In this document: positions 3,480 through 28,578 of the stretch, in pieces | How the letters are laid out: the number at the start of each line of letters is the position of its first letter | Position numbering within the stretch: the first letter of the stretch is position 1 | IMG/VR virus record: IMGVR_UViG_3300030329_003775 | Source: an uncultured virus (IMG/VR IMGVR_UViG_3300030329_003775) | Lineage: Duplodnaviria > Heunggongvirae > Uroviricota > Caudoviricetes | Direction: 5' to 3' (one strand) | Length of the DNA: 64,000 bases | Program-made: the position numbers and the translations under genes | The notes under the pieces: model-generated | The model's database searches: none | What the model was told of the DNA's origin: nothing | What the model saw: the letters and a program-made list of their open reading frames with translations, nothing else

Positions 3480-3485
3480 TGAGTT

Positions 3486-3692: not shown

Positions 3693-3705
3693 CCCCCCCC
3701 TTATA

Positions 3706-5827: not shown

Positions 5828-6180
5828 TGGCTAATTACACCCGAAAACCCGGAAGGCTAAAAATAAATAGCGCAGGGGAGCTGCCTGAGTTACCGGCAAC
5901 CAGCAAGCAGGATCAGGCTTTTGATGACTGGTGGGAGGAAAGTCGCTCTGTTCTGAACAGGCAAAGAGAGGAAGCGGAAGATGAGGCCACCCCAACTTCA
6001 ATATACTTCGAGTCCGCTGATGAGTGGAAACATACACACGCTCTCGGAAGGTATCCAATTGCTCAGGTTGTTGATGGCACAGGCACCATAGTTTCTCCTC
6101 AGTCAATTAAGCACAATTCAGTTAATGAAATCACCGTGACTCACGCAACGGCGCTGGCCGGGACGCTGATCTTATACTAG
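5827..6180 (+). CDS. Small tail-associated protein
   Basis: TAATG-coupled to the upstream gene; HTHALGRYP beta-repeat motif seen in tail proteins. Confidence 0.5.
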   Translation: MANYTRKPGRLKINSAGELPELPATSKQDQAFDDWWEESRSVLNRQREEAEDEATPTSIYFESADEWKHTHALGRYPIAQVVDGTGTIVSPQSIKHNSVNEITVTHATALAGTLILY

Positions 6181-6211
6181 ACAAAACAACAAGATACCCT
6201 AAATTCAAGAT

Positions 6212-7336: not shown

Positions 7337-7783
7337 ATGTACGAGCCTACATTAACCCAAGAACAAATATGGGAGCAGATGCAGGTTATCTGCGAAAAAG
7401 AGCCAAAAGCCTTGGAGTTTTACCAAGGCCTTTGTGATTCCGTGGCAACTTGGGATCACATTGAGGATGATGAGCCAGTCGATAAGGAGGCCGCAACAAG
7501 GGCCTTTAACTTCCTGCTGATTGACGCCCCGCTTAATGAGTTCTTTGTGAAGTACCGGGATAGCCTTGTGCCGGTCATCATGAATGCCATCTCCGCTTGG
7601 AGTTTTTCCAATGAAGAGGGGGCACCAAAGATCAAGGCATACGACGTTTATACTGAAGTGGCCTGCACAATCGCCCTCATATTGGGTGGGCGTCAGGCCG
7701 TGGAGCAACACATACCAGTCCTCCGGAGGATGCAGTGGCAGAACTGTCAGGAGGACGACCTAGTTGACGGAGGAAAGAAATAA
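7337..7783 (+). CDS. Conserved all-helical phage protein with an acidic WDHIEDDE motif
   Basis: ORF between the tail and ejection genes; Asp-rich motif. Confidence 0.6.
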   Translation: MYEPTLTQEQIWEQMQVICEKEPKALEFYQGLCDSVATWDHIEDDEPVDKEAATRAFNFLLIDAPLNEFFVKYRDSLVPVIMNAISAWSFSNEEGAPKIKAYDVYTEVACTIALILGGRQAVEQHIPVLRRMQWQNCQEDDLVDGGKK

Positions 7784-7784
7784 T

Positions 7785-9530: not shown

Positions 9531-9547
9531 TTAAAAGCGAGGACAAG

Positions 9548-12500
9548 ATGGCAGACTACAGCATATTACGCCGGATTGAGCAGAGGACCAATGACCTGTT
9601 CGCGCCACTAAGGAGAAGCCAGCAGGCTTTATCAGGTTATGAGCGCCAGCTCGCTGCCCAAACAAATGCATTGGAGGGTCGGCTATTCTCTGAAGAGCTG
9701 ACTGATGCAAGGCTGAATGAGAAGCGGGAGCACGACAGGAAGGCAACTAAAAGGGCCGAGAGAAGGCGCATAGAGGCTGCACGAAATGAAAGGTCGTTAA
9801 TTGATTTGGCAGGGGCTCTGAAGTACGCCACCCAGAGCGGGGTCAACGCTGAAAAAATTCAGAAAGAGATTTATGGGGGAAAGTCAGCCGAGGAAATGAC
9901 ACGCCAAGAGCGTGCTGATGCTACGGCCAAGTTGTACTCAGCTGGCAGTGATGCATATAAGAAAGCAAATAAAGACCAAAGGGCAGAGACTCAGATCAAG
10001 AATCTGAAAACCATGCTCGCAAATTATGGAGCCCGCATTCCAAATCAACAAGAAGGTCAAAACAATAAGGATTACTTGGATGTGCTGTACTCGGCTCTTC
10101 GGCCTGCCCGCGAAAACTCATTGAAGGAGGACCACCGACGCGAATGGGAGGCTGCTCAACACAATAAGAACTTTGAAATTCGACAAAAAGCCAGTTCGCT
10201 TGGAATACCTATCGGAACCCCAACAGCGCCGGTGCCAATTGCTGAGCTTATCGCCGAGATAAAAAGGAAAGAGCCAAAATACATAATTCGGCAGAAACGA
10301 GCTGAGGCTGACCTAATAGAGAGGATGGATCTTGTTAACCATGCAAGGACTTTGGCCGACACTGCCCAAGTGGACGCAAGTGTTCGCGAGCGCCTTCGCC
10401 TTTTAGGTGAGGGGAATGGTATTAGGATAACTCAAGCGGATGGAAAATGGTCCGTCAACATCCTTGAAGATAACCTGAATGATCCAGCCAAATTCAGCCT
10501 CAGTGACCTCCGGGAAATCGTCATGTCCACTTCTGCCTTGGACAAAGAAAACCAGCACTTGGCGGAAAGCATAAAACTTCAAAATGAATTTGATGAATTT
10601 GTTGAAGCGAGAGGGAACCTTAACCTGACACCAAGGCTTAGCGTCAGACAGATCATTAAAAACTGGGCCGATGATGGCACGTTAGTGCAGAACTTTGGCC
10701 TGGAGCAAGATCAAGTAGAAATGTTTAAAAGTGGAGCCGATGCGGAGTTTATCCGGAGTGCTAGTGAGGATGAAAGAAACCTAGTTAGGACCATCCAGCA
10801 AGCGGCAGCTGCCGAGGCTGAAAAAAATTTCAATGATCTGCAGGAAGCCGCGAGGGCAGCGGAAGGTAACCTCCCCCCCGAGCTGGCAATGTTTAAGGAC
10901 AAGCTTCAGAACAGGGGGCTTGAGCTGATAAAAAAGCAGCAAGAAAATCAAAGGTGGATTCTTAAGTGGGCAAATACACCCTATAAGCACGAAACCCAAA
11001 CCCTTCATAGGAATTGGCTAACCCTAACTCCTTCTCCTGCTTCCACTCCACAGGTAGGAGCACCGGAGGCAGCAGCTATTCCACTTGGGCGTCAATGGCA
11101 TGGGGTTCCAGCGACTCCAGCTCCAGCCCCAGCTCCAGCCCCAGCTCCAGCCCCAGCTCCAGCGGTGCCAGCTCCAGTAGCTCCAGCGGTGCCAGCCCCA
11201 GCTCCAGCGGTGCCAGCTCCAGCTGCTTCAGTGGTGCCAGCTCCAGCTGCTTCAGTTCCAGCGGTGCCAGCCGTACCGGGCAATCCGCTTGCCCCTATCA
11301 GAATCCCCTCTGAGTCCCTTGCTCAGCGAGCTCTCCCGCCCGCTCCATTAGAGCCGGATCTCCCTGAGGAGGCGCGTGTTCCCATGGCTGGCGGGCTGAG
11401 GCCACTCACACCCCAAGCTATCGCCCCACCAGATGAGCCTCCTCCAATCCTTTCTCCTGCGGTACTGCCTGCGCCCCTGACGCCCGATCAACAGGAACAG
11501 GCCACCACGGTCCCGCCTGCGCCCTTGCCGCCTGACCAATGGACAGACCAGCCCCCTCCAATTCCTTCTCCTGCGGTCCCGCCTGCGCCCTTGCCGCCTG
11601 ACCAATGGACAGACCAGCCCCCTCCAATCCCTTCTCCTGCGGTACTGCCTGCGCCCCTGACGCCCGATCAACAGGAACAGGCCACCACGGTACTGCCTGC
11701 GCCCCTGACGCCCGATCAACAGGAACAGGCCCCTCCAATCCCTTCTCCTGCGGTCCCGCAAGCTGGCGTACCGGCGACAGATCCACGGGGAAGGTGGCCG
11801 CAGGCTGAAGGGCCAGTGTGGAGTCCCCCCACCTCTGATATGCCGCCTACCATGCTGCGTAGGCACAATGACCAAAGGAGGAGCATGGGGGGAGGCACAG
11901 TAACTCCCTCTCCTGTCCCGGCCCCAACAGCCCCGCAGGACCCTGTCACTCCAAATACGCAGTTTCAGATGCGCAGGTCCTTGAGGCAGCCGGAGCTGCC
12001 CCCCGCCCTCCCAGCAGCGCCGTGGGGGGATGCCCCTCAGGGATTAGCCGTGCCCCCCGCGCCTGGAGTGCCACCGACGATTCCAGACCCATTGCCTGTT
12101 GTTCCGCCGACACCAGCAGTCACGCCTCAAGTACCGCCGCCGATTCCTCCGCCGACTCAGCCCGTGCCCCCACAGGCCACAACTGAAAGCGTTGAGGATG
12201 CAACAAAGAAAAGCCTCGACTCAATTAAAGATCTCGGGAAGGCGGCTAACCCCAGCTTTGAGCTGCCTGAGGTTCCTGCCCCGAGGGGCCGTGGAGATAA
12301 GTCAATTGAGGAGATGAAAGCCGACATGCTTAGTAGGCTTCATAAGTCGGTCCTCCCGATTGAGGAAGCAAAGAACGCTTTGCCTGTTCCAAACGTTCCC
12401 CACGGCGGGGAAGAGGCTGTGCGGAAAGCGTACAGCCTTGGCCTCAGGCGCGGCCCCATGGATAGGGAAGCTGAGTCAATCGTAGGAGGTGGTCGCGGCA

Positions 12501-12862
12501 TCCTGAAGGCCGAGGGTGATTGGTTTGGTAGATACACTAAGGGGCTCTACCCGACATGGGAGGATAAGTACAGGGCAGAGGGGCTGCCTCCCTCTATTGA
12601 TCCCGGAAATACAAACTGGACAACTCCACAGTGGCTCCCTTTCTGGGACACAATTAAGTCAGTCGGAGGGGGTGGGGCTTATCAGGACATCCCCAACATG
12701 GACCCAACAACGAAGAATCTATTGCCTCAGAGCGAGGGGCAGGAGTCGAACTGGATTCAAGGGAGAGGCGGTGAAATAATATGGGTCCATGAGTTGGATG
12801 CCAAGCCAAGCGGGCCCGTGCCGCCACTTCCGCTGCCTTCAGTCCCAGCACCAAATAAATAG
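9548..12862 (+). CDS. Internal virion protein with a long Pro/Ala-rich repeat region
   Basis: 1104 aa; helical N-terminal half; lies between the pilot-like and giant proteins. Confidence 0.65.
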   Translation: MADYSILRRIEQRTNDLFAPLRRSQQALSGYERQLAAQTNALEGRLFSEELTDARLNEKREHDRKATKRAERRRIEAARNERSLIDLAGALKYATQSGVNAEKIQKEIYGGKSAEEMTRQERADATAKLYSAGSDAYKKANKDQRAETQIKNLKTMLANYGARIPNQQEGQNNKDYLDVLYSALRPARENSLKEDHRREWEAAQHNKNFEIRQKASSLGIPIGTPTAPVPIAELIAEIKRKEPKYIIRQKRAEADLIERMDLVNHARTLADTAQVDASVRERLRLLGEGNGIRITQADGKWSVNILEDNLNDPAKFSLSDLREIVMSTSALDKENQHLAESIKLQNEFDEFVEARGNLNLTPRLSVRQIIKNWADDGTLVQNFGLEQDQVEMFKSGADAEFIRSASEDERNLVRTIQQAAAAEAEKNFNDLQEAARAAEGNLPPELAMFKDKLQNRGLELIKKQQENQRWILKWANTPYKHETQTLHRNWLTLTPSPASTPQVGAPEAAAIPLGRQWHGVPATPAPAPAPAPAPAPAPAVPAPVAPAVPAPAPAVPAPAASVVPAPAASVPAVPAVPGNPLAPIRIPSESLAQRALPPAPLEPDLPEEARVPMAGGLRPLTPQAIAPPDEPPPILSPAVLPAPLTPDQQEQATTVPPAPLPPDQWTDQPPPIPSPAVPPAPLPPDQWTDQPPPIPSPAVLPAPLTPDQQEQATTVLPAPLTPDQQEQAPPIPSPAVPQAGVPATDPRGRWPQAEGPVWSPPTSDMPPTMLRRHNDQRRSMGGGTVTPSPVPAPTAPQDPVTPNTQFQMRRSLRQPELPPALPAAPWGDAPQGLAVPPAPGVPPTIPDPLPVVPPTPAVTPQVPPPIPPPTQPVPPQATTESVEDATKKSLDSIKDLGKAANPSFELPEVPAPRGRGDKSIEEMKADMLSRLHKSVLPIEEAKNALPVPNVPHGGEEAVRKAYSLGLRRGPMDREAESIVGGGRGILKAEGDWFGRYTKGLYPTWEDKYRAEGLPPSIDPGNTNWTTPQWLPFWDTIKSVGGGGAYQDIPNMDPTTKNLLPQSEGQESNWIQGRGGEIIWVHELDAKPSGPVPPLPLPSVPAPNK
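11107..11760 (+). repeat. Coding tandem repeats: (PA)n tract, then PPPIPSPAV(L/P)PAPL(T/P)PDQ units
   Basis: Near-identical DNA repeats such as ccagctccagcc and cctgcgcccctgacgcccgatcaacaggaacaggcc. Confidence 0.95.
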
Positions 12863-12864: not shown

Positions 12865-15800
12865 ATGTCTAGACTAGCAGACTTCTACCGGCAGCAACGC
12901 CCTGATGAGGGGAGCCTCTCTGACAACGAAATCCTGTACAAGTACTATGCTTCAAAAGGCGAGGCATGGATGCGGGAAAACCACCCGCAAGACTGGAGGC
13001 AGCTCCAAGACTCAATAAATAAAGCATTCCCTTTGTCGTTCGGAGAGGAGCTGTCCAGAGGCTGGACCCGTGGAGTTGAGGGGCTGAAGAGTACTTATTA
13101 TGGTGGCAAGGCGTTTGCATGGGATGCAGTCGGAGCTGACGACTGGCGTGATAAAAATATTGAGTGGTATCAGGAGCACTCCCAAAGGGCCAGTGATCCG
13201 GCAACTGCAGCCAGAGACCCTGATTCATGGGGAGCATTAGTAGGTGAAGCCGCGCCGTCAGTGGGAGAGTCTCTGGTAGTCGCCGGTGGTGGTGCTTTGG
13301 CGGCTTCAATGCTTACTCCGGGCATTGACCCCACAGATGTGGCTGCCGCTCCGGCAGGGGCCATTGCTGGCGTGGTCAGGAAGCAGGCCATCAAGAACCT
13401 CATGCGTGATCAGTTTGGGGCCAAGGCGGCAAAGGAGGCTGGCATAGGGGCATTGGGATCTCATCTAGTAAAGAGTGTCCCCTCCGCAGCAACCTCACAG
13501 TTAGCCTCCCGGTATGGAAAGAAGGAGGCTGCTGATCTCGTGCAAGCCGAGATGAAGTCCATCATGGCAACATCGGGCGGAACCCTTGCCTCGTTTGGCA
13601 ACTCACTCGGCCTAAATACCGGAGGCATTTATGGTGATCTTGCAAGCGACCCTGACATTGACCCAGACGACGCTTTTAATATCTCCCTTATAGGAGGGTC
13701 GATTTCGGCTATTCCAGACTCAGTCCTGCCTTCATACGTGGCGGGCAAGCTGATGAGGTCCATATACTCAAAGCCTATTACTGAAAGCGTCAAGCGCTCT
13801 ACTTATCAGAAGATCGCCAACAGCTTTCCCGGCAGAGTTACGCGGTACATGGGCGGGGCTGCTGGCTGGGAAGGGACTACTGAGTTCTTTCAAGAATACG
13901 TACACATCATCTCACGAAAGGTTGCGGAGGGAGCCACGCTCAGCGATGCGATTGATGCCCCATTGTCCTATGATGAAGTTGAGCGGATGAACCATGCATT
14001 CAAGGTCGGCGCTGTAGCTGGCGGAATGTCTGGTGGAGTGGTAACCGGGGCAAGCTACCTGAGTCCAGCTGACCAGTCTGACCAGTCTGACCAGACTGGC
14101 CCAAGTGAGCCACTTGAGCCAGACATAGAGCAGGTTAATAAATTTGGCGAAATGTTTGGCGGGCGGAGCGCCAAACCGGGCGAGTTGGAGGTCTTCTTGG
14201 GTACGATGACTCAGGAAGAGATTGCTGAGGTAGACGAAATACTTTCAAGGGAGGTTGCGGACTGGACAGTAAACGTGAAGGGGGAGGTAACGAATCAGAG
14301 CCCCGCTATTGTGGCTGAAATATCCGACAAGATCACCAACGATGGCAATGACGAGGCCAAGAGAAGTTATTATTACAAGCAGAGGAATGAGGCCAGATTA
14401 AAAGCCGCCCAGGAAAGTGCTGTCAGGTCTGATACCCCAAAAGAAGGGTATGATGAAAAGGGAGGCACTCCTCCAACTGAAGATCAACTTAAGAGTGCAT
14501 TTAACGCAATCAACACTGCTGCCAGTGACCATAATAATGACACTAAGGAGGAGGCTGAAGAGGAGGCTGAAGCTGATCCTGAAGCGCAGTGGCAGAAGAA
14601 ACAGGCATGGGCCCAGAAACGCGCCGATGCCGGACTCGCCACCCACGTAACCTTGGAAGTTATAGATAGCCTCACAGCGCTTCACTCGGAAGATAAGGAA
14701 ATCAGCAAACGCTGGCAGAGCGAGCTTTACGCCTCCAAGAGGAAGCAGCTAGTTGAGCTTTTGGAGAAGGGAATCTCCACGATAGACGACATAGCTAGAG
14801 CCACCACAATTCTCAACGATATGCGCGGGGCAATGATGTCTGGCATCGACCCCAACAATATCAAAGATGTTGAAGCCGTCAGTGATACGTTTGCAATGTT
14901 TGCAGACACCATTCCCGTTGCTCCGGGCTTGGTGTCCAAATATAAAGAACACACGGAGGCGAAGAACTGGAAGGCAAGAAAGTGGAAGCTCCTTCGGCCA
15001 AAACGCGAATATCGCGGTGACTCTATTTGGAGTGGGGGCGGGTCATTTGATGGGATTAACATAGAATATTTCTGGGACAGGCCCGAACACGGGCAGCCGT
15101 ACCACCACTCCGACACAACAGGGGAAGTCGCCCCCAGCCGCCGCGCTGACCTATTAGAGTTCCTTGGCAAGGGGATCGACCCCTATGAGATTCCTGCCCC
15201 TCGCAAGCGCCCCTTTCCTGCGAGTGGGAAAAAGGAGTGGGGTGAATTCCCGGAAGAAATGAGCCCGTTTGCGCTGGCCTTAAAAGCAGCCAAGCAGAAG
15301 AAGAAAAACCAAAAGCAGCTTGTCCCATCACTCCCCAATGAAGCGCAGGTCGCAAAAGCAAATGCAGACATCGACAGCAGGATCGAGTTTCTCGAAAAAG
15401 AACTTAACAAGGTTGAAGCCGAAATCAATAAGGCCAATGAGAAGAACAGTGAAGACCTTGATAAACTAGCCAAGAACAGGAGGGAGCTGCAAGAGAAGGG
15501 TAACTGGGACGAGGCTGCGGAGGCTAAGTACTCTAGAGATGTAAGCAAACTCGCTCCCAGTGAAACATTAACCTTAAACCTTCTAAGAATTAAGCAAGAG
15601 ATTGAGAATCTTAACGGTACAAGGGATTACGAGGAGGGCCAGTTCCTGCAGGGATCTCACATTGCATTCCAAACTCAGCTCGCAGAGAAGCAAGAGACTT
15701 ATTCCGAACCAAACGACCAAGGAGAGGTTGAGGAGAAGAAGCTCGAGAGGCCGAGATACCCGGCTTTTTACCTGATTGACGAGGACACTATTGCGGCAAG

Positions 15801-18800
15801 GGATCTCAGGGAGGCTTTACGTGTCTCTTCTGAGGGGACCAAGGAGGAAGCCGCCGAGGCATATGAAAAACTTGGAGACATCCTCACCAGCCAAGGGCGG
15901 GCCAAGGGCCGAAAGGAGTCACTTAGCAGCAGGCTTGTTATTTTGCAGGACGAAGATGGGGCCTACCATGTGCTTTCGATTCATAAGAAGAACAAGAAGT
16001 ACTTGGTTACCCTCCCGGTGGGCTACCCCAAGTCTGGTCGCAAAAAAAACGTAAGCCTTAACGAGCTCATAGAAAAAAACTACAGTGTCAAGGGATCAAT
16101 ACGGCTCCTGTTTGAGCGGGAGGAGGTAAGGCACAGGGTCCCCCGCGAGGAGTTTAATAGCTGGGCGAAGGAAAGGATTGATGAGCGGCATAGCCAAGCA
16201 TCTGCAGCAGTAAGCCTAGACAGGGCTGAGGCCGGAGGCAAAACCAAAGCCCTTGATGCGCATGACGAAGAGGGCGGCGAGCTGGAAACTTATGGCTTCA
16301 GTGAAGGCACATGGACGGGTGAGGGTGCTGAGATTGAGGCCAAAAGGACGGAGAATACGATTGTAGAGGCAATTCAGGAGCAGCTCGATAAGGGAGAGAT
16401 CATGCCTGAAGAGCTTCCGCCGTTCAGTAAGAAAACGAAGGATTGGGTTTATAGTCTTGTTAGCGCCTCCGCAACAACTAACCCAAACATTAGCTCTGAG
16501 GAATTATCATACGCAATAATAGGAAGTATTTTATCTGATAGCCCTGATCCAGTGAAGAAAGAGCTCAGGGACTATTACGATAGTAATGGCAAAACAGCCG
16601 GACTTGCGGCTGCAATTGGAAGGGAAGTTTATGAAGCAAGAGAAAAAATACAACCGGGGTACGGGGAGCAAGAAATCAAAGCTCTTGGAGGAGGGCAAGA
16701 AAAACGAGGCGGAGTTCCTGAAGGCGCTCAGAAGCGGGAAAATGAGGAGTCTGGTGGCGCTTCACGTACAACTCAACGCGGTGAGACAGATGATAAAGTA
16801 AAACCCCCGCCGCCGTCAGTCATCAGCAGAAGCACCAGGGAAAAAATAGACGAAGACAAGGCCGCAGAAACCCCCACAGCAGTAGAGGAAACAGGCCCGC
16901 CAGCAGCTCTAGCTGATGCGATTGGGAGACGCAACATAGACTGGGTTGACGGGGAGCTAAGGTTGCCAAACGGGAAACCTGTGACTAGTGAGAATGTTGA
17001 GGAGATCATCGCTAGACTGGATGAGGATGATAAATCCCGAAGTACGTATGGAACTGGCGTAGAGGGCGGACTTACGGAGGCTGAGGCTGAGGCTGCTGTT
17101 CGCAATATGCCTGATGACGTGGACGTTACAACACTGCAACAAGTTTTAATAAATGATTCCCGTGTAACAACCAAGGCTGAGGCAATAGAAAAGTTTGAGG
17201 CCAGCAAAGCAGACAGGGAGCAGTACCGGAACGACCTCAGGTTGGCTCTCTCTGTGGTGGAAGGCCAATCATCAACCACCACCCCCTTGGAAAGCAAGGC
17301 AGGGGATGAAGAGTTTGCCTCGGATAGGGCGGCCATGCTTGAGGACCTTCTTCTAAGAAAGAAGATCCCGATTGATGTGGTTAACGGTGATACTGGCGAG
17401 ATAATTCTAGCTGCTGGCCGTAAAATCTTTAAGAACAGGCTGGCTAAACTCCTTCAGGCTCATGATCACGTCAGTGAGCTTCTCTTTGAAGGAGGCACAG
17501 AGGAGCAGATTCAGGAATGGCGCAGTAAGATTATGGGAATCCTGAGTCCCGCCCCCTTGGAAAGCCGGATTGATGGCGGGAACACAGAGTCTGAGATAAA
17601 CGAGCTGGAGAACATCTTTTTGGGGGAGAAAATCCGCGCACAGATATTTCACGCTGATACCGGGGAAATAATAATACCCGGCAACAAGACGATTACCAGA
17701 GACATGCTGGCTAATCTTCATAGGTTGAGGGACAAGCTGGACTTTGAGCCGGTTCCGGGAGACAGGGCAAGCAGGCCGCAGGACGCAAATGAGGTCCGTA
17801 AAAAGGTCATGGGCGTTCTCGAAGACAAGGGCGCATTCCTTTTCAAAACAAGAAGAGAGGAAAATACTCATGGGTATATAGCTGTAGAAAGAAATAAAGT
17901 TCTTGATGGAAAGGCTAGTCCTGAAGACGTGGCTTTTGCCATGAGCTACAACCTTAGGCAGGAAGCGACTGAGGGGGCTGCCAACAAGCTTTCCGCCTTC
18001 GAGAATGCAGTCCGTAACGGGGCCGACTTCTTGGAGGAACTGCACAAATTGCTTGAGGGTTTAGGGTACAGGAAGGTTCACAGCGTAGGGGAAAAAGTCG
18101 CCTACAACCCGCTTACAGAGGAGGACATGGTGGGGGGTATGATCCCCGGAGACAGTGCCGTGGTCACTGAGCCCGCATGGAGGGGGGAGCGCGGTGTCGT
18201 AAGAGGGAGAGTCACCACAGAGTCTGAGATAGAGGTGGCGGTGGACGAAACAGACCGAGAAGCAAATACGGCTGCCAATAGACAGCTCGTCGAGGAATCG
18301 TTTTTGCAGGGCTTAAGGCAGAAGATTACAGGACGTATTTCCAAGGAAGTTAACAGCATTAACGAAATGCCCGAGGGCGATGAGTCGAATTTAGGGCCCC
18401 TCATTGATGCTGTAAAGCGTATCGAGGAAGTCTTGCTCGAAACGGAAGTGCTCCCGTCTAAGGAGGACCCGTACACAAGATCCTTTAAAACTATAGAAGC
18501 ATTGCCGGATGGCTGGGGAAAGCAGATCAGGCGATCTGCCCTGCAGGGCTTAAGGCCTAAGGTTGATAAAGGCACCCGAGGGGAACTTGATGATCTTCTT
18601 GTCTTGATTACGAGGGACGACCTCAGTAGCTACGGAATCGCCCTTAAGAAAGCCAAGCGCATCATCGAGTTCTTGACTCGTGCAGAATTGCTGCCGTCAA
18701 GTTTTGGGATAGACCCAACCAGAAGGGCCTCTCTGGCTAGTGCCAATGAGCAGGAAATTGTTAATGCCTCGCTTACCCCGCTACAAACAGAGGATGTAAT

Positions 18801-21800
18801 TGGGGCCTTCGGTGGCTATAAGTACAACCCGGAAACCGGGCGCATGGAGCCAGTGGAGGTTGTGCCAACGACGAAGGATGCCATTAATCATAACGTAAAT
18901 GCATCTGTATCACATGTCTCAGAAGCCGCGCCCGAAGTGGAGTACGTACCCTCAATGCTCGATGGACTCACAGACGATGAAGCAAACGCGGTTACCAAGG
19001 GTATCCGGGAAAAGATAAATGGCACTACTGAGGGAGCCATGGGCATGGTCGAGGTCTTGCTGCAGAGCGAAGCCAACATGGAGATGGGCCCGGACGCTGA
19101 GCTTACTTCCTTTGAAAAAATGTTCGTGAAGATAGCCGCCTTCCTCAGGGCTCACCCACTTCTTGCAGATGTTAAGTGGAAGATAGCAAAGGGGGCTCGA
19201 GTAGTAAAAGACCCTGAAGGCTCTTACGCCGGTACGACAGCGGCGGAATATACGGACCATGACAGGACTATAACGCTCTACTTGTATCACATGACAAGCC
19301 GCCGCAAGCTCGCGGCTGATCTAATCCATGAAGCCATACATGCCCTGACGCAGCGGCTCGTTTATGATTTCAAGGAAGGAGGAGGAAAGCGGCTTACCGG
19401 GCGACAGAGGGACGCCCTCAACAAGATCGACAGGCTCTACAAGAAGGCCCTTAAGATTTACTCAGAAAAAAACCAAGGCAAGGCTACTCCCTACGCGTTT
19501 TCTAGCCTTGATGAATTCATGGCCCATGTAATGTCGAGCAGGGTCATAATTCAGACTCTGGCAAATATGGAAGGCGAGAGAACTGACACCAGCCTTCTGC
19601 AGGATATTTGGAACCAACTTAAAATCCTAATCTTGGATGTGCTTGAGGCCGTTAAAGGAACAGAAGTTTTATTGGGCCCCGAAGAATCCACAACGCTGGA
19701 TAGAACCTTGGCCGGTGAAGCCATCGAAGGAATTCTTGTACTGGGAGGGGCGTCAAAGGATCAAATAGAAGGTGTCAGTTACCAAGCATTCATGAACATG
19801 GTCGGCGGGGTCAAGGCTGGGCCCCCGGCGACAACTCTTCAGAGCATTATGGGCGGCGGGACCACTGTTACTCGTGGTAGCGATGTGGATAATACCGCGC
19901 TGAATAAGACTCAAGTCGCCACCTTCAACGCTCTCGATAAGGTGTACAAGTCCATGTACGAGCACTGGAATGAAATGGGCATGAACCCAACTGGAGTCTC
20001 CTACGAGGAATTTGTGAAGCTTCAGCTAGGCACGGATCTACCATCGACTCGGATTAACGACATCAACAAGGCCCTCATTAAGGTTGGTAAGGCCACGATT
20101 GACAAGGGGACCACAATAGATTCGATCACTAACAAGGAAAGGGTTGCGGATAATACCTACCAGTTGCTGTCACGGACTAAGGCAAAGATGGTAAATAGCC
20201 GCAACAAGGCTGAGGAGACAGTGATTGAAGCTTCTGAAAAGTTTGACCAGTCCAATAATGAGCTCGAGTCCATCAGGAAAAATTACATGGCTGCCGGGGC
20301 CACCACCCGGATAGTGGCGACCTCGCTTAGGAATTTCCTCGATGACATGAAGAGGACCTTAACGAACCAGCACGGGGTGACGTTCAATATAATAACTCGG
20401 ACTCACAACGCCTTAAAGGCGTACCAAGAAGACGTGCCCCTCAATACCGACAAGAATGCAGTATTTGTGGCTGACAAGCTTACAAGCGATGAAGATCTGC
20501 TATTTGAGGCCCTAAGTGAGCTCTCTGAGCTGGACATAAATTTCGCTGGCTCAAGCCATTCAGACCTTGCCGGATACGTTGATGATGTCCTTACTAAAAT
20601 GGACACCACTCTTGATCGCATATCCAGCGATCAGGATGTCAAGGCCGCAGCAGCCAGCCTGCTTGTTTCTCTCGCGAAAACGAACCAGTTCATTTTAGAC
20701 CTCATTCAGGTCAGGAACATGGGCGCTGAAGCCGCGATGGGGAACAAGGAGCGGGATGCCATTAACAATGCCATAAAGCTCGCCATGAGCGCAGACGTGG
20801 AGGCGCTAAGTAACGCCCGGAGGGCCGTTGGGTCTGTACAAACGCACAGCGCAGCGGCGGAGCGAATTCTCAGTCACCTGACGAAGAAGAAAAACGAGCA
20901 CGCCAAACTGCTCAGGGATCAGAAGAAAGCTCGCGAGTTCATAGACATGGACAATGTCACCCGGAAGGAGCTGGATTTCCACATGGCCCGCCTTGAGGAG
21001 AGTCTGGACGCCGAGCAGGCAGCACTTCGTGAGGCAGCTGGCGGCAGCAAAAAGCTGCTCGCGGATGCCCATCAGGGATTTCTATACATAGTGCCCACAA
21101 ACCCGGACATCCCCTCGCGTGACCTTCTTAATGTAAAGGCAAACAAGGACAAGGGATGGATTCAGGTCCTTTATATGTCTCCGCCAAAGGACAAGCACGG
21201 CAAGGCAATGAGTCGCAAGGCTTACCTTGGGAAGCTGCAGCGTGACTTGGCCGCAATGAAGGCTTGGCTCGATAAGCCGGGACGAACAAAGGACAAGGTT
21301 TACAGGTTCATAAAGAGATCGTATGCGCGAATTGCAAACGAGGTTGTCCTCCATGAATACCAGTCACGTCGGAGCCATACAGTGTTGGCCGTGCTCGGCC
21401 AATTCCAGGACTGGGCTAACGTGACAGGGAACCCCGTTTTGAAAAATGCCGGGGCTCGCATTAGCAGGTTTTGGGGCCTCGTCAAATGGTCAGAGCAGGC
21501 AGAGCCTCTGGCCCGCGAATGGGTGATTGCTGAGGCGAACGCAAAGAGAGCCCTTGGATGGACCTCTGAGGGGTCCACTGACGCTATCCGGGCTAGGGTT
21601 CATTCCGTGGCGCTTAGCTATTTTGAGAACCACCAAGAGCTGCTCGAAAATGAGGGCAGCGTTGAGGCTGCCATCACAAAGGGACTGAAGAACCTGCGCC
21701 AACAGTGGATTGCTGCGGGCGGAGAGTTTGGAACAAAGATCCGGGACGATGGGACTTGGGCGGCTGTTGAGAAGTACATTCGTACCACGGGCAAGATCTC

Positions 21801-24800
21801 AAGTAAGCTGGTCAATATTCAAGAGGAGATGGGCATCAAGGTGCTCGATGAAAGCGGCCCATACGCGTATTTCCGTAAGGCCATAGGAGCAGAACTATTC
21901 ACTGTAGCCCGCCACATGAGCTCCGAGATTCAATCTGTTGTGAGAGAGATGCGGGCGAAGTGGACCGCTGACGGCAATCGCAGGCGTAAACCTAGTGACG
22001 TCGAGGTGGAGTCCGCTGAGGAGTACTCCAAAAACCGTGACGCCCTTGCGGGTAAGTGGAGGGGCATGGTTGATCAGGGCTCTTGGCGCACATTCGTTGG
22101 TGACCTTGCCGCCAAGGAAGGGCAGGGGGTGTTCATGTCTGCAGAGGACATTGTACTCAGCGAGGATAAGCTTGGCGATCCGGTGCTTGATAAAGTTGGT
22201 GTTCTTGCTTCCAGAACAGAGGCGATAGAGGCGTGGGGAGAGGCCACTACCGAGGAGGGCGGTGACCCGGTTCTTTTTGCGGAGCTCCTCTACGAAAAGA
22301 CTGGTGGCAATATGGCGGACCACGTCACCAAGGCTCTTTATGTAGCCAAGACGCTTGGCCAACTCCAGAGAAAATATAATGGACTCAACGCACACATAAA
22401 CGAGGCATCAAGCCCGACGTCCATAAATAACGTATTTGATAACAGTCCACGCGTTATGATGGATGCTCGGCAGACGGAAGGATTCCCGAGCTCATGGATG
22501 AGCTACATGACTTACGAGGAGCACCAAGTCACTGCCACTATACGGGGATGGGCTGCGCAGGCCGCGCTGGGAACCGATATGTCGGGAATGGACTCGGACT
22601 TGAGTACAGCAAAAAGGATATTTGAGGCACAGGACGACATGCTCGTGAAAATCCAAGGGGAGGCCGACGAAGCCTATGGTGTAAACCCAACCGCAAAGAA
22701 GCAGCGATGGATTGAAAATGAGGCCAACAAGAGGGCGCTCAATGAGTTTGGGATCAAGGAGGGTGGTTATAAAATTCTTTCCGAGGCCAAGAAAAATAAA
22801 AAGTCGCTTGAGACATTCAGGCAGAAGGTAAGCTCGTTGATGCGGAATGAGGCTTCCAAGGCGACACTCGAGTACTCGTCCGCGATGGAGCTTCTTGGCT
22901 CGCTTGCGGGAATCGCGGTGCAGGCCGTTAAAACGGCCATCATCGACACGTCGGCGCTGGCTGTCCAGCCCGTCGCCAAGGCTGGCGTCCGCACAGGCGG
23001 TAAGTGGAGCGCAAGGAATTTATTTGGGTTCACAAAACAGATTGTGGGCTCATTTCTGCAGGCCATGGGCCGTCAAATCGACCTTGAGGCAGGTTGGCAG
23101 ACTAAATACTCCGAAGCCAATCTGGGCGACCCAGACAATCTCATGGAGGCCCGAGACAGGGTCGTCGCAGCGCTCAACCGGGAAGTCCCACCGGGCACCA
23201 TGTTTCCGGGTGCAGTCAAGACGGCGAGATTTGTATCCGAGTTCTTTCTCCGAAGCGGCTTCGTTGGCTGGGGTGAGCGTGGGGCAAAGACTCGCTACAC
23301 CACATTGAAGCCGCAGGCGGTATTTACAATGGCCAGCATGTGGATGCACGGGGCCAACGTAATCGGGACGTGGAAGACCTACGCAGAGCTGGTCAAGAAG
23401 GCGGCAGATGCGCTGGAGTCAAACCCAAAGGCCAAGCGTAACAGTGATTACGAATTGAGTCACACCGATGTCGGCATGGACAAGACGGGGTTTGACTACA
23501 TGAAGGGAATGCTTGCGGATCAAGGCATGAGGCTTGAGGCCTTGGCGCGGAATTTGAACAGCGGCAAGGAGCTAAAGGGGGACACTGAGATTTTTACAAA
23601 CCATCAGCTGCGACTATTGGCGACACTTGCTCAGACGGAGATCACCAAGGAGACTTCTCCTCTCACGCGGCCTACATGGGTGTACACAACTGAGCTGGGG
23701 AGATGGGCCAACCCGCTTTTGGGCTGGTCTCTTGAGAAGACCGCTGACATCGCCAGAAATTTCAAAACTAGGGATAATGCAGGCAGATTCAGCTATAAGG
23801 TTGCCCTTCGGTCAATGGCACCGTTCACGGTGGTTCTACCGATAACTCTGGCGTATGCCATGATTCGTGAAGAGTGGGAAGAGGAGTGGCTAGGTAAAAA
23901 GGCTAACCGTCTGGACTTTGATGCTGACAAAGACTTGACTCATAATTTTGTGGCATTTGTGGACCGGGCCAATGTTGCAGGCACATTTGGTATTGCGGGC
24001 GATGCCGCAAACTCTCTTATCAACCTCACATCAGGCAGGCAGTTCTCGATTGAGAACCGAGTCTTCTTTTTATCCATGGTGACAGGCTTGTTGACCGAGG
24101 CATGGAAATGGAAGGGACGCGGTATGCCCACTGACTACCAGCACATGACAAGGCCACTTATACAGTCCCTTGCTGGCGGCGGACTGCTGGAGTTCTTGCA
24201 GGCAACTGACGGGGCATTTGGTTTGGCTGAGTCTGAGCGCCAGGTAACGAGGCGAATTAACGTCGAGAACTGGCTGCGGTCTGTAGGAAGGGCGCTCGAG
24301 CTCGATGTCAGAGGCTTTTATAAATCCCAGACAAGAAACACGGTTAAGCCGCATGTGCGCAATATGGCAATCCACGCCATGTCCAATGACCCAGAGGCCT
24401 TTTGGAAGGCGCACAGATCTGCCCTCAAAGAGGCGAATGAATGGGTCATCGAGAAGAGGAACTATACCATTCGGACCGGAGGGCGCGTCGAGTCAGACAA
24501 GACCGTCCATGAAGAAGCCGTCGAGTACGTTCGCAGCAGCTTCAGGGACCAGCACCCATTGCGCAAAATATTCGTGACGATGCCTACCGACATGCAATAC
24601 CAGATGCTCCTCAATGAAATCCCCGGCGACCACCGAATGGACATAAAGAGTGCTATTGATATGTTTAATTCCTATGGGGAGCGGATTGGGATTGAGCCAC
24701 TCCAAGGTAAGACGGAAAAGAAGTCTACGCGGAGAAGGCTGAAGAGACCCACTGGAATCGTGAGTGATTTATTGCAGAAGAGGAGGCGTGAAATTTTCCA

Positions 24801-24819
24801 AAAAGCAACCGGATATTAA
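12865..24819 (+). CDS. Giant (3984 aa) internal virion / ejection polyvalent protein with a zincin-like metallopeptidase motif
   Basis: Uninterrupted 12-kb ORF; Gly/Ala membrane-like N-terminal segments; HEAIH...DEFMA motif at ~19327-19520; last gene of the ejection cluster. Confidence 0.8.
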   Translation: MSRLADFYRQQRPDEGSLSDNEILYKYYASKGEAWMRENHPQDWRQLQDSINKAFPLSFGEELSRGWTRGVEGLKSTYYGGKAFAWDAVGADDWRDKNIEWYQEHSQRASDPATAARDPDSWGALVGEAAPSVGESLVVAGGGALAASMLTPGIDPTDVAAAPAGAIAGVVRKQAIKNLMRDQFGAKAAKEAGIGALGSHLVKSVPSAATSQLASRYGKKEAADLVQAEMKSIMATSGGTLASFGNSLGLNTGGIYGDLASDPDIDPDDAFNISLIGGSISAIPDSVLPSYVAGKLMRSIYSKPITESVKRSTYQKIANSFPGRVTRYMGGAAGWEGTTEFFQEYVHIISRKVAEGATLSDAIDAPLSYDEVERMNHAFKVGAVAGGMSGGVVTGASYLSPADQSDQSDQTGPSEPLEPDIEQVNKFGEMFGGRSAKPGELEVFLGTMTQEEIAEVDEILSREVADWTVNVKGEVTNQSPAIVAEISDKITNDGNDEAKRSYYYKQRNEARLKAAQESAVRSDTPKEGYDEKGGTPPTEDQLKSAFNAINTAASDHNNDTKEEAEEEAEADPEAQWQKKQAWAQKRADAGLATHVTLEVIDSLTALHSEDKEISKRWQSELYASKRKQLVELLEKGISTIDDIARATTILNDMRGAMMSGIDPNNIKDVEAVSDTFAMFADTIPVAPGLVSKYKEHTEAKNWKARKWKLLRPKREYRGDSIWSGGGSFDGINIEYFWDRPEHGQPYHHSDTTGEVAPSRRADLLEFLGKGIDPYEIPAPRKRPFPASGKKEWGEFPEEMSPFALALKAAKQKKKNQKQLVPSLPNEAQVAKANADIDSRIEFLEKELNKVEAEINKANEKNSEDLDKLAKNRRELQEKGNWDEAAEAKYSRDVSKLAPSETLTLNLLRIKQEIENLNGTRDYEEGQFLQGSHIAFQTQLAEKQETYSEPNDQGEVEEKKLERPRYPAFYLIDEDTIAARDLREALRVSSEGTKEEAAEAYEKLGDILTSQGRAKGRKESLSSRLVILQDEDGAYHVLSIHKKNKKYLVTLPVGYPKSGRKKNVSLNELIEKNYSVKGSIRLLFEREEVRHRVPREEFNSWAKERIDERHSQASAAVSLDRAEAGGKTKALDAHDEEGGELETYGFSEGTWTGEGAEIEAKRTENTIVEAIQEQLDKGEIMPEELPPFSKKTKDWVYSLVSASATTNPNISSEELSYAIIGSILSDSPDPVKKELRDYYDSNGKTAGLAAAIGREVYEAREKIQPGYGEQEIKALGGGQEKRGGVPEGAQKRENEESGGASRTTQRGETDDKVKPPPPSVISRSTREKIDEDKAAETPTAVEETGPPAALADAIGRRNIDWVDGELRLPNGKPVTSENVEEIIARLDEDDKSRSTYGTGVEGGLTEAEAEAAVRNMPDDVDVTTLQQVLINDSRVTTKAEAIEKFEASKADREQYRNDLRLALSVVEGQSSTTTPLESKAGDEEFASDRAAMLEDLLLRKKIPIDVVNGDTGEIILAAGRKIFKNRLAKLLQAHDHVSELLFEGGTEEQIQEWRSKIMGILSPAPLESRIDGGNTESEINELENIFLGEKIRAQIFHADTGEIIIPGNKTITRDMLANLHRLRDKLDFEPVPGDRASRPQDANEVRKKVMGVLEDKGAFLFKTRREENTHGYIAVERNKVLDGKASPEDVAFAMSYNLRQEATEGAANKLSAFENAVRNGADFLEELHKLLEGLGYRKVHSVGEKVAYNPLTEEDMVGGMIPGDSAVVTEPAWRGERGVVRGRVTTESEIEVAVDETDREANTAANRQLVEESFLQGLRQKITGRISKEVNSINEMPEGDESNLGPLIDAVKRIEEVLLETEVLPSKEDPYTRSFKTIEALPDGWGKQIRRSALQGLRPKVDKGTRGELDDLLVLITRDDLSSYGIALKKAKRIIEFLTRAELLPSSFGIDPTRRASLASANEQEIVNASLTPLQTEDVIGAFGGYKYNPETGRMEPVEVVPTTKDAINHNVNASVSHVSEAAPEVEYVPSMLDGLTDDEANAVTKGIREKINGTTEGAMGMVEVLLQSEANMEMGPDAELTSFEKMFVKIAAFLRAHPLLADVKWKIAKGARVVKDPEGSYAGTTAAEYTDHDRTITLYLYHMTSRRKLAADLIHEAIHALTQRLVYDFKEGGGKRLTGRQRDALNKIDRLYKKALKIYSEKNQGKATPYAFSSLDEFMAHVMSSRVIIQTLANMEGERTDTSLLQDIWNQLKILILDVLEAVKGTEVLLGPEESTTLDRTLAGEAIEGILVLGGASKDQIEGVSYQAFMNMVGGVKAGPPATTLQSIMGGGTTVTRGSDVDNTALNKTQVATFNALDKVYKSMYEHWNEMGMNPTGVSYEEFVKLQLGTDLPSTRINDINKALIKVGKATIDKGTTIDSITNKERVADNTYQLLSRTKAKMVNSRNKAEETVIEASEKFDQSNNELESIRKNYMAAGATTRIVATSLRNFLDDMKRTLTNQHGVTFNIITRTHNALKAYQEDVPLNTDKNAVFVADKLTSDEDLLFEALSELSELDINFAGSSHSDLAGYVDDVLTKMDTTLDRISSDQDVKAAAASLLVSLAKTNQFILDLIQVRNMGAEAAMGNKERDAINNAIKLAMSADVEALSNARRAVGSVQTHSAAAERILSHLTKKKNEHAKLLRDQKKAREFIDMDNVTRKELDFHMARLEESLDAEQAALREAAGGSKKLLADAHQGFLYIVPTNPDIPSRDLLNVKANKDKGWIQVLYMSPPKDKHGKAMSRKAYLGKLQRDLAAMKAWLDKPGRTKDKVYRFIKRSYARIANEVVLHEYQSRRSHTVLAVLGQFQDWANVTGNPVLKNAGARISRFWGLVKWSEQAEPLAREWVIAEANAKRALGWTSEGSTDAIRARVHSVALSYFENHQELLENEGSVEAAITKGLKNLRQQWIAAGGEFGTKIRDDGTWAAVEKYIRTTGKISSKLVNIQEEMGIKVLDESGPYAYFRKAIGAELFTVARHMSSEIQSVVREMRAKWTADGNRRRKPSDVEVESAEEYSKNRDALAGKWRGMVDQGSWRTFVGDLAAKEGQGVFMSAEDIVLSEDKLGDPVLDKVGVLASRTEAIEAWGEATTEEGGDPVLFAELLYEKTGGNMADHVTKALYVAKTLGQLQRKYNGLNAHINEASSPTSINNVFDNSPRVMMDARQTEGFPSSWMSYMTYEEHQVTATIRGWAAQAALGTDMSGMDSDLSTAKRIFEAQDDMLVKIQGEADEAYGVNPTAKKQRWIENEANKRALNEFGIKEGGYKILSEAKKNKKSLETFRQKVSSLMRNEASKATLEYSSAMELLGSLAGIAVQAVKTAIIDTSALAVQPVAKAGVRTGGKWSARNLFGFTKQIVGSFLQAMGRQIDLEAGWQTKYSEANLGDPDNLMEARDRVVAALNREVPPGTMFPGAVKTARFVSEFFLRSGFVGWGERGAKTRYTTLKPQAVFTMASMWMHGANVIGTWKTYAELVKKAADALESNPKAKRNSDYELSHTDVGMDKTGFDYMKGMLADQGMRLEALARNLNSGKELKGDTEIFTNHQLRLLATLAQTEITKETSPLTRPTWVYTTELGRWANPLLGWSLEKTADIARNFKTRDNAGRFSYKVALRSMAPFTVVLPITLAYAMIREEWEEEWLGKKANRLDFDADKDLTHNFVAFVDRANVAGTFGIAGDAANSLINLTSGRQFSIENRVFFLSMVTGLLTEAWKWKGRGMPTDYQHMTRPLIQSLAGGGLLEFLQATDGAFGLAESERQVTRRINVENWLRSVGRALELDVRGFYKSQTRNTVKPHVRNMAIHAMSNDPEAFWKAHRSALKEANEWVIEKRNYTIRTGGRVESDKTVHEEAVEYVRSSFRDQHPLRKIFVTMPTDMQYQMLLNEIPGDHRMDIKSAIDMFNSYGERIGIEPLQGKTEKKSTRRRLKRPTGIVSDLLQKRRREIFQKATGY

Positions 24820-24859: not shown

Positions 24860-25024
24860 ATGAAGGATCATCAGGACATAGCAACTACGCTTGGAGTTAA
24901 CGGGACAGTGCTAGGGGTCACTTGGCTGAGTGATCTGGAGATATTCTTAAAGCTCCTACTGTTGGTTCTCTCGATAGTATATACGGTCATAAAAATTATA
25001 TCACACTTCAGGGTCAAAAAATGA
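24860..25024 (+). CDS. Small membrane protein (54 aa), holin/antiholin candidate; not in the ORF track
   Basis: MKDHQDIATTLGVNGTVLGVTWLSDLEIFLKLLLLVLSIVYTVIKIISHFRVKK; hydrophobic helix with basic C-terminus; ATGA overlap with the next gene. Confidence 0.65.
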   Translation: MKDHQDIATTLGVNGTVLGVTWLSDLEIFLKLLLLVLSIVYTVIKIISHFRVKK

Positions 25025-25935
25025 AGAAAATATTAGTCATTCTCACTCTGGTTGCCACCTCTGTGTTGGCTGCAGAGAAAAACATAGCCGACTACTTGCA
25101 GTCTATCTCCGTGACCGTCAGGTCTGAGGCAGGCTTTTCGAGATCTGAGGGCAGTGGAGTTATCTACCGCCGGGACGTGGATGGGAAACAAGTCAGTTTT
25201 ATTTGGACCGCTGGCCATGTGGTTAGAAACCTGCGGAAAGTCCGTGAGGTCATTGATCCGGAAAAGGGCTCACCAAGGAAGCTCATTGAGTTTGGTGACG
25301 CCAAGATTGTGCGAGAAATGAGAAACGCGAATGGCCGCAAGGTTGGCGAGGTCGCGGTTGACGCCAAGATAATTAAGTACTCTGACGCGGAGGATGGCCA
25401 TGATTTGGCGCTCATGATGGTGCGCTCAAGGGACATGAAGGCGTTCGGCACGGAGACCACAAAGTTTAAGCTGGATGACAAGCCAGTGCCACTAGGGACC
25501 CACCTCTTCCACGTTGGTTCCTTGCTAGGCCAAATGGGGTCGAACAGCATGACGGACGGAATTATGTCCCAGCACGGCAGGATATTTAAGCGAACCTTCA
25601 TGGATCAAACAACCGTGGTCGCCTTCCCAGGGTCGTCCGGAGGGGGTGTATTTCTGGCCAAGGATGGCACCTGGGTGGGCATGATTGTCCGGGGGGCAGG
25701 AGAGGGCTTTAACCTAACAGTACCGGCCCGGAGGCTCGTGGGGGAGTTTTGCGAGAAGCACAAAATCAGATGGGCAGTTGATCCCGCGATCAAGGTGACC
25801 ATGGCAGACATAAACAATATGGCTGTTGAAGATGTAGGGATACCGGGTCCGAGCAAGGGAGCCGGGGATGAGAAATTATTCCCGATCCTCCCTAGGATCA
25901 CGGATCTCTCGGGTAACCCCATAAACAAAAAATGA
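25021..25935 (+). CDS. Secreted trypsin-like serine protease
   Basis: Signal peptide MKKILVILTLVATSVLA; catalytic triad motifs WTAGHV, HDLAL, PGSSGGG. Confidence 0.9.
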   Translation: MKKILVILTLVATSVLAAEKNIADYLQSISVTVRSEAGFSRSEGSGVIYRRDVDGKQVSFIWTAGHVVRNLRKVREVIDPEKGSPRKLIEFGDAKIVREMRNANGRKVGEVAVDAKIIKYSDAEDGHDLALMMVRSRDMKAFGTETTKFKLDDKPVPLGTHLFHVGSLLGQMGSNSMTDGIMSQHGRIFKRTFMDQTTVVAFPGSSGGGVFLAKDGTWVGMIVRGAGEGFNLTVPARRLVGEFCEKHKIRWAVDPAIKVTMADINNMAVEDVGIPGPSKGAGDEKLFPILPRITDLSGNPINKK

Positions 25936-28317: not shown

Positions 28318-28566
28318 TTGTCGGACAAATTCGGACAAGTAGGGTATCATTCAAAAACCCTCGGGAAAACTGCAATATCCTTACCCTTCACACCGATGGG
28401 GTCGGAGGTTCAAGTCCTCCAGTGCGCACCATTTATTTTCCCCCAATATCCCGCTTTTCCGGTACAAAAGTTAATAAATTGTTAGTATGTCAGAAGTAAA
28501 GACGTATTGACAGTTGCGGACAAGTATGGCCATTTACGGACTTTGTCCGACGAATTTGTCGGACAA
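28318..28566. repeat. Integrase arm-type sites ((T)CGGACAA repeats) flanking the attP core
   Basis: tcggacaa at 28321 and 28331, cggacaa at 28517, inverted ttgtccga at 28543, ttgtcggacaa at 28556. Confidence 0.75.
28387..28431 (+). other. attP: attP core: 3' half of tRNA-Val(CAC)
   Basis: TT-CAC-AC loop, CGATG, GGGTC, T-arm GGAGG-TTCAAGT-CCTCC, AGTGCGC-ACCA; no 5' half upstream; adjacent to the integrase. Confidence 0.85.
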
Positions 28567-28578
28567 AACCCACAAGGC

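Follow-up and report, generated by a model that had tools for sequence, protein, structure and literature searches.

The locus described here raises the question of why the giant protein of a tailed phage should carry what looks like a piece of a bacterial RNA polymerase (RNAP), twice over, and what that piece might do there. The window, by which we mean the whole 64,000-nucleotide stretch of DNA that was analyzed, comes from an uncultured virus of the Caudoviricetes (IMG/VR record IMGVR_UViG_3300030329_003775). Its layout is like that of a tailed phage, and almost every gene is on the plus strand. One uninterrupted open reading frame (ORF) in it, P0001, encodes 3,984 amino acids (aa), and toward the middle of this giant protein are two tandem units that resemble the tip of sequence insertion 2 (β-SI2, also called β-i9) of the RNA polymerase β subunit, RpoB. 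The original prediction, made from the letters of the window, was that two related units are each headed by the same PLES anchor and that they resemble a lineage-specific insertion in the RpoB of Verrucomicrobia. Both statements hold up in the comparisons that follow.

The Two Tandem Units

The units and their landmarks are placed as follows.

12865..24819, plus strand: giant ORF (P0001), 3,984 aa, uninterrupted, carrying both units
17283..17295, plus strand: 13-nucleotide word CCCCTTGGAAAGC (P-L-E-S) at the head of unit 1
17284..17553, plus strand: unit 1, RpoB β-SI2-tip-like domain, aa 1474–1563
17389..17406, plus strand: DTGEII core of unit 1, at aa 1509, with the TGE motif as in RNAP-β BEAN domains
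17553..17565, plus strand: the word CCCCTTGGAAAGC again, at the head of unit 2
17554..17835, plus strand: unit 2, the second copy, aa 1564–1657, with a 12-aa insertion before the last helix (alignment A2)
17656..17673, plus strand: DTGEII core of unit 2, at aa 1598

The two units are related to each other as proteins, with 30 identities in 92 positions (33%; BLASTP E 5e-10), and PLES stands at aa 1474 and aa 1564 (nucleotides 17284 and 17554). The 13-nucleotide word is by itself unremarkable, since the window contains 506 same-strand pairs of 13-mer repeats; what is notable is its placement at the head of both units. The duplication is old, because the DNA of the two units is only 46% identical (103 of 222 aligned nucleotides), the longest exact run between them is the 12(+1) nucleotides at PLES, and their GC content (0.51) equals that of the whole gene (0.52).

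A Hidden Markov Model (HMM) was built from 23 RpoB SI2 segments with no phage sequence included (alignment A4). Run over the six-frame translation of the window, it matched at the two units and nowhere else, scoring 41.3 bits at aa 1479–1538 (domain E 6.1e-12) and 39.2 bits at aa 1580–1633 (2.7e-11). Profile searches of the window, this one among them, found no third copy of the module.

Chimeric assembly can be excluded for the stretch with the units. In two runs, which may be the source sample, Logan contigs cover 16501–18600 unbroken. In a run from another study the stretch is covered in four pieces with 0 differences, and one of these pieces (17310–17666) bridges the junction of the units. 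The runs containing the sequence are labelled marine. The RNA library of one sample contains most of the stretch, which is not proof of transcription; the contigs of that library (run X7) leave 17231–17452 uncovered, a gap that carries no inference.

Relationship to the β-SI2 Tip of RpoB

A word-indexed search with the 187-aa tandem scored 2,120 candidates, of which three reached E ≤ 10, and all three are RNA polymerase β subunits (E about 5e-5 for 5.8e9 sequences). An exhaustive phmmer search of 1.84e9 representative proteins gave 47 matches at E ≤ 0.001, the best at 1.6e-6 and none below 1e-10. All 47 align to one RpoB, P0004, in or around aa 850–1050, which is its SI2 region. The sequence of the RpoB insertion given in the original prediction agrees almost letter for letter with P0004 and with loci L001–L010. 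When the units were compared to P0004 one at a time by BLASTP, unit 1 had 30 of 61 identities with aa 900–960 (49%, E 1e-13), and unit 2 had 24 of 51 with aa 916–966 (47%, E 4e-12). Since the matching segment of P0004 sits directly before the GDKMAGRHGNKG block, and that block aligns to E. coli β at about 1060–1079, the segment is β-SI2/β-i9. The boundaries of SI2 in E. coli are given as 940–1037 (Alvarez-Carreno et al. 2024, PMC11515920) or 936–1041 (bioRxiv 10.1101/2020.03.01.972380).

The nearest genomic relatives of a 160-aa piece of P0004 are in Chthoniobacterales and other Verrucomicrobiota metagenome-assembled genomes (79–87% identity), and next in Kiritimatiellota and Lentisphaerota. 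Against other phyla the piece is 33–57% identical over the best segment and ≤41% where most of the query aligns. In a tblastn comparison of the units to the 80 loci obtained with this piece, unit 1 matched at 23 and unit 2 at 22 with E < 1e-6, the core identity reaching 57.8% over 45 aa (unit 1), and all of these loci that bear a phylum label are from Verrucomicrobiota, Kiritimatiellota or Lentisphaerota. The remaining loci either gave E ≥ 8e-5 or matched in the SI1 region.

The identity of each unit to the SI2 tip is 47–58%, above the 33% between the units. The similarity to RpoB is not confined to the hairpin, but extends into the preceding helix and into a following DxxPxP / (I/V)RxK(I/V) segment, and both units retain the TGE motif and the distal EPVP / RxKxMGxL elements. 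On the 112-position profile of the module, they cover HMM positions 7–88 and 12–110. In common with the β-SI2 of Verrucomicrobiota, Kiritimatiellota and Lentisphaerota RpoB, the units have the TGEII(I)P.N(R)K.I(T)K..L..L core, the distal P.P and (I/V)R.K(I/V), and a predicted helix–β-hairpin–helix–β–helix topology. They differ in lying outside the RpoB flap, in occurring twice in tandem, in each having an insertion of its own of 9–12 aa, and in the stalk being cut to short helices: the long antiparallel stalk of RpoB is absent around the units, and the flanking helices are only about 18 and about 15 residues long. These results establish the units as homologues of the tip of RpoB β-SI2, of the Verrucomicrobiota/Kiritimatiellota type.

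A phmmer search of PDB sequences with the tandem yielded four matches at E ≤ 10, with no RpoB among them (best E 0.039). No RNA polymerase of the Planctomycetes–Verrucomicrobia–Chlamydiae (PVC) group is among the PDB matches.

Fold and Probable Membership in the BEAN Group

An AlphaFold2 (AF2) model of unit 1 based on alignment A2 reached a predicted local distance difference test (pLDDT) of 70 and a predicted template modeling score (pTM) of 0.52, with helices (H) and strands (E) in the order H-E-E-E-H-E-H; a model from the single sequence was unusable (pLDDT 39). The solved structure that best matches the model is the RNAP β of Flavobacterium taeanense (Bacteroidota), chain 9n9p_C, at residues 917–1009 in the SI2 region. 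That match has a Z of 6.3 (below 8), a root-mean-square deviation of 3.6 over 89 aa, and a Foldseek E of 0.14 with prob 0.97; because the alignment behind the model is mostly RpoB, it is not independent of the sequence result. Weaker fold matches, at Z 3–4.4, are to the C-terminal domain of Orn/Lys/Arg decarboxylase, to β-SI1 of several bacteria, and to a β′ domain. When a profile of the two units without the RpoB rows was compared to the PDB, BEAN domains of RNAP β ranked first (best E 0.0042). The two-unit profile had 23 PDB matches at E ≤ 10, and 18 of the 23 are RNAP β or β′ chains.

The BEAN group (CATH 3.90.105.10), whose fold consists of two antiparallel, bracket-like α/β-β elements, has been described by Alvarez-Carreno et al. 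(2024, PMC11515920). The carriers named in that paper are RNAP subunits, archaeal uL10, MoeA, ferredoxin, decarboxylases and one unknown protein; the RNAP-β members carry a TGD/E motif, and BEAN domains outside RNAP-β are without it. The domains appear there as appendages of unrelated enzymes (section 2.3), and the word "phage" has 0 occurrences in the paper. The phage units are small α/β domains with the TGD/E motif (DTGEII in both), and they have the weak fold or profile matches to β-SI1, to β′-bD5 and to the Orn/Lys/Arg decarboxylase C-terminal domain. Taking the fold matches together with the ranking of the two-unit profile in the PDB, the units are probably BEAN-type domains of the RNAP-β kind, and specifically of the SI2-tip subtype of the PVC group.

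Capture and Duplication

Of 401 genomes sampled from the phylum, 393 carry the module. RpoB is therefore clearly its home, which supports a transfer from RpoB to the phage. In 392 of these genomes it is single, and in one there is a second, weak match (G259:C590:246-371, locus L097; E 2.4e-5, HMM positions 28–70), located in a 784-aa open frame at a contig start, which could belong to the SI1 region of a further RpoB fragment.

A tree built from 34 modules places both units within the group of Verrucomicrobiota plus Kiritimatiellota (support 90/89), with two Lentisphaerota sequences and the four non-PVC outgroups falling outside it (96/90). Each unit sits on a very long branch (2.5 and 3.2 changes per column), and a tree joining both units as sisters is not rejected (p-AU, from the approximately unbiased test, 0.40). 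Each unit being closer to RpoB than to its twin fits one old capture and then a duplication, with the slowly evolving RpoB staying near the ancestral state; selection for resemblance to RpoB would also fit. Capture from RpoB followed by duplication, which the original prediction had proposed, is well supported as the origin of the units, given how widely the module occurs in these genomes and that monophyly of the units is not rejected. On this account, a piece of a bacterial rpoB gene, consisting of the tip with short stubs of the stalk, was taken up long ago into the middle, variable part of the giant phage protein, and the captured tip was duplicated in tandem.

The SI2 Tip as a Surface and in Other Proteins

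Over 19 full-length RpoBs, the mean column identity is 0.77 in the 62-aa tip, 0.70 in the whole protein, and 0.42 and 0.51 in the flanking stalk. Since the tip is conserved above the whole of RpoB and above its own stalk, it seems to be a functional surface. The phage copy consists of this conserved tip with stubs of the stalk, not of the stalk itself. Within Verrucomicrobiota RpoB, the tip stretch IIPANRKITKTLLRKLA is nearly invariant (L001–L022; aa 944–1005 in L001, for example).

The one contact reported for the E. coli SI2 tip (bioRxiv 10.1101/2020.03.01.972380) is with the 30S proteins S2, S3 and S5 in the transcription–translation complexes TTC-C and TTC-D, which are weak coupling complexes. 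Deletion of SI2 in E. coli gives mild, unclustered phenotypes, and β-SI2 is termed understudied (bioRxiv 10.1101/2020.06.16.155770). The insertions in the RNAP of one member of the Bacteroidetes are only said to "likely interact with transcriptional factors" (PMC12259091).

Several of the 47 module matches are proteins other than RpoB. P0022 (792 aa) has ankyrin repeats, then an SI2 stalk-and-tip module, then Sel1 repeats. P0024 (491 aa) begins with the stalk-and-tip module and continues with Sel1 repeats, and its Sel1 part is related to that of P0022. P0031, a short charged protein, also has the module. In P0019 (267 aa), a helix-hairpin-helix domain like the C-terminal domain of RNAP α (α-CTD) is joined to a β-SI2 module, at aa 71–139 and 149–260. 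Of 11 PDB matches to that α-CTD-like domain, 10 are α (best 3gfk_B, E 3e-4), and P0019 is in this way a mosaic of two RNA polymerase surface pieces. The presence of the module in non-RpoB proteins (P0022, P0024 and P0019) makes it appear portable. About 10 more of the matches have flanks unlike RpoB and unlike each other, and many of these are short metagenomic fragments, possibly truncated or chimeric. A metagenome scan with the N-terminal part of P0019 found nothing, and one with the Sel1 part of P0024 returned 40 generic Sel1 loci with the module in none of the 40.

The Giant Protein and Its Gene Neighborhood

The only relative of the giant protein among 5.8e9 proteins is P0053 (3,262 aa), which is without the module. 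Since P0053 matches only aa 2–385 and 3134–3957, the middle of the protein, where the units are, is variable and its two ends are conserved. These parts of the protein, a motif in the middle, and the flanking genes are placed as follows.

26–7336, upstream of the giant ORF: tail-fibre and virion protein genes
7764..12862, plus strand: two unknown ORFs of 588 and 1,104 aa, downstream of the tail-fibre genes and directly upstream of the giant ORF
12868..14019, plus strand: N-terminal part of the giant protein, aa 2–385, common to P0053 (30% identity)
19327..19341, plus strand: the protein's one HExxH motif (HEAIH, aa 2155), within its variable middle, with no metallopeptidase family or PDB match
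22264..24735, plus strand: C-terminal part of the giant protein, aa 3134–3957, common to P0053 (26% identity)
25021..25935, plus strand: trypsin-like serine peptidase gene downstream of the giant ORF (Pfam Trypsin_2, E 4.6e-11)

Neither Pfam (hmmscan of the whole protein, E ≤ 10) nor PHROGs assigns a family to the giant ORF, the units likewise being below the cut-off, and PDB sequence searches with three other parts of the protein gave no match. In IMG/VR neither the middle part nor the module has relatives, and a search there with the C-terminal alignment had an identical 8.5-kb fragment as its sole match. The nearest virus record, of 11.4 kb (G001), does not match the middle of the giant protein, and no INPHARED phage matches its C-terminal part.

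In a language-model atlas, the neighbors of the N-terminal part are viral hypothetical clusters (score 0.95) and those of the C-terminal part are LPD38/ART-PolyVal clusters (0.85–0.86), both of which are leads only. The domains LPD38, ART-PolyVal and LPD22 are found in 14–87% of the members of the neighbors, at scores of 0.85–0.95. Such domains belong to the polyvalent proteins of phages and conjugative elements, for which delivery along with the DNA has been proposed (Iyer et al. 2017, PMC5512222). The giant protein is like these in being very large and multidomain, in having an HExxH motif and ends that are conserved around a variable middle, and in standing in the virion gene block. It is unlike them in that hmmscan of the whole protein against Pfam at E ≤ 10 found none of their signature domains (MuF, LPD, ART-PolyVal, zincin and others), the atlas providing leads only. 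From gene order and size, we infer that the giant protein is virion-borne, ejected, and of the polyvalent kind; with regard to gene order, it comes after the tail-fibre genes and the two large unknown ORFs. The terms "BBM2", "sandwich-barrel" and "decoy" have 0 occurrences in PMC5512222.

After the peptidase gene come the replication genes, for a DnaB-like helicase, a single-stranded DNA-binding protein and a DnaA-C-like protein, and then two integrase-like genes and the large terminase. The integrases are of the tyrosine type and lie at 28507–29703 and 54315–55373, the second just upstream of the terminase block. Among the upstream virion genes, the one at 26–2917 encodes a large fibre or virion protein that contains a SPRY domain and DUF7483. 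At 45422–48044, a gene for a MoxR-like ATPase (phrog_1297) precedes one for a DUF2201 metallopeptidase/VWA protein, a pair that is common in phages. Past the terminase, three large ORFs (756, 489 and 572 aa; 58225–63699) belong to no PHROG or Pfam family and presumably encode the portal, scaffold or capsid proteins of a lineage not yet sampled.

PLE|S begins both units (17284–17295 and 17554–17565), VLE|D ends unit 2 (17821–17829), and PLE occurs only three times in the giant protein. Given the trypsin-like peptidase gene just downstream, it is a matter of speculation that the LE sites are processing sites that release the units.

What the Units May Do

The most likely role of the copied tip, and one that we hold with about even confidence, is that of a surface mimic of RNA polymerase acting early in infection. 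The SI2 tip is a small BEAN-type α/β domain with a TGE motif, presented on a helical stalk at the surface of the polymerase. In the mechanism we propose, the giant protein would be ejected from the virion into the host, and early in infection the copied tip would engage a host component that normally docks on the SI2 tip. That component might be titrated away from the host RNAP, or it might be tethered to the phage protein or to the incoming DNA. Small phage proteins that bind the host RNAP, such as T7 Gp2, Xp10 P7 and T4 AsiA, are likewise tools against host transcription early in infection. However, these act by binding RNAP and do not descend from it, whereas the phage units are a copied piece of RNAP itself, which points to mimicry of the polymerase and not to binding of it.

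The mimicry could more specifically be that of an injected decoy of the RNAP surface, an idea we put forward tentatively: two copies of the most conserved exposed knob of β, delivered with the DNA, would capture the factor that docks there. The captured factor might be the ribosome (compare the contact of E. coli SI2 with the 30S subunit), a termination or regulatory factor, or a defense sensor that watches RNAP.

Several points weigh against a role in mimicry. Many of the residues that the units have in common with RpoB belong to the hydrophobic core or to turns (L19, L24, I48, L53, L56 and TGE), so the conservation could reflect the fold and not a binding surface, and the two units retain different subsets of the RpoB surface residues (for example, RK in unit 1 and KT in unit 2). 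The branch lengths of 2.5 and 3.2 and a GC content that is the same as in the rest of the gene indicate that the capture is old, so that function may have drifted. The module is dispensable for the giant-protein family, since the only relative does without it. Packaging and ejection are read from gene order and size only, with Pfam and PHROGs naming no family, and the polyvalent link rests on atlas leads below 0.9. Finally, the fold model was made from an RpoB-dominated alignment, and its best match is to that extent not independent.

Some of the same facts can be read to mean that the captured SI2 tip is now a plain structural or spacer module, serving folding, virion packing or length, with no remaining link to RNAP. 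This explanation ranks second and is possible, though we doubt it. It would account for the conserved positions being largely core residues, for the long branches and fully ameliorated composition, and for P0053 managing without the module; BEAN domains are, moreover, appendages in unrelated enzymes (PMC11515920, section 2.3). It does not sit well with both copies being nearer to RpoB (47–58%) than to each other (33%), or with the retention of the RNAP-specific TGE and the distal EPVP / RxKxMGxL elements. The other carriers also speak against a mere spacer, in that they pair the module with protein-binding repeats or with another RNAP surface domain.

Ranking third, and unlikely, is that the units dock on the host RNAP or on its SI2 and recruit the polymerase to the entering DNA for transcription-driven entry. 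The tandem would give avidity for such docking, and no RNAP family was found among the window ORFs scanned (34 with PHROGs, 33 with Pfam); however, the window may be less than the whole phage genome, and nothing suggests that SI2 tips self-associate.

That the units merely share a generic BEAN or "DTGE hairpin" fold, independently of RpoB SI2, is largely refuted. The two-unit profile does weakly match β-SI1 and β′ BEAN domains of other bacteria (E 0.004–0.5), and there are weak tblastn matches to the SI1 region of non-PVC RpoBs. However, generic DTGE hairpins, which the original prediction had named as the contrary outcome, are not what was found: all 47 significant matches are to the SI2 module and none to another BEAN domain. 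The similarity also reaches beyond the hairpin on both sides, to the helix before it and to the DxxPxP / (I/V)RxK(I/V) segment after it, and BEAN domains outside RNAP-β, as described in PMC11515920, are without TGD/E.

We also considered whether the giant protein could be a very divergent virion RNA polymerase of the multisubunit type, with the units as vertical remnants of its β-like part. Giant virion RNA polymerases exist in N4-like and crAss-like phages, and the giant protein is like them in size class and in its position in the virion block, but it is without a polymerase family, motif conservation or a structural match. A DFDAD string in its conserved C-terminal part (aa 3684–3688; 23914–23928) recalls the metal-binding motifs of polymerases. 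Two of its three Asp, D3684 and D3686, are not invariant when the protein is aligned with P0053, which makes a hidden RNA polymerase unlikely, and the idea drawn from this DxDxD-type motif was dropped. Outside the units the protein matches no RNAP family and no PDB chain, its C-terminal part showed no profile or structural match to double-psi β-barrel polymerases, and the similarity to RpoB is limited to about 75 aa and is duplicated, which together leave this explanation very improbable. Last, the joining of a bacterial rpoB piece to a phage contig during assembly can be dismissed: the window is of metagenomic origin, but the identity of the units to any RpoB is only about one half, they are duplicated and stand in frame within one long ORF, and the contigs of the other study bridge their junction with 0 differences.

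The Host

The original prediction took the units to point to a verrucomicrobial host. The placement of the units in the tree (90/89) gives this weak support, and the long branches and the want of any independent host signal detract from it. A host in the Verrucomicrobiota or Kiritimatiellota seems somewhat probable, the sole pointer being that placement of the module sequences. The independent signals that were sought were negative: relatives of the C-terminal part of the giant protein are in 0 of 201 Verrucomicrobiota genomes, and there are no close isolated phages. The large terminase (TerL) matches only phages of Gordonia and Rhodococcus, at 22–29% identity; with the relatives of the giant protein absent and those of TerL so distant, relatives give no clue to the host.

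Implications

A literature search of limited coverage found no prior description of a phage protein with an RpoB insertion domain. Lineage-specific insertions in bacterial RNA polymerases are widespread and mostly of no known function. That a phage kept two copies of just the tip, that within Verrucomicrobiota the tip is conserved above RpoB as a whole, and that the module occurs in unrelated proteins together suggest that the tip serves as a binding surface for which competition would pay. Using both the phage tandem and the RpoB tip as baits for the partner offers a direct experimental route. If the units do act as a decoy, they would provide a handle on the function of β-SI2, and the knob would have been co-opted repeatedly, as in the ankyrin/Sel1 fusions and the mosaic of α-CTD and SI2, so that "RNAP-surface mimics" would be a wider undescribed class. 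If the mimicry is true, the copying of a host machine by domain capture would join the repertoire of giant phage proteins.

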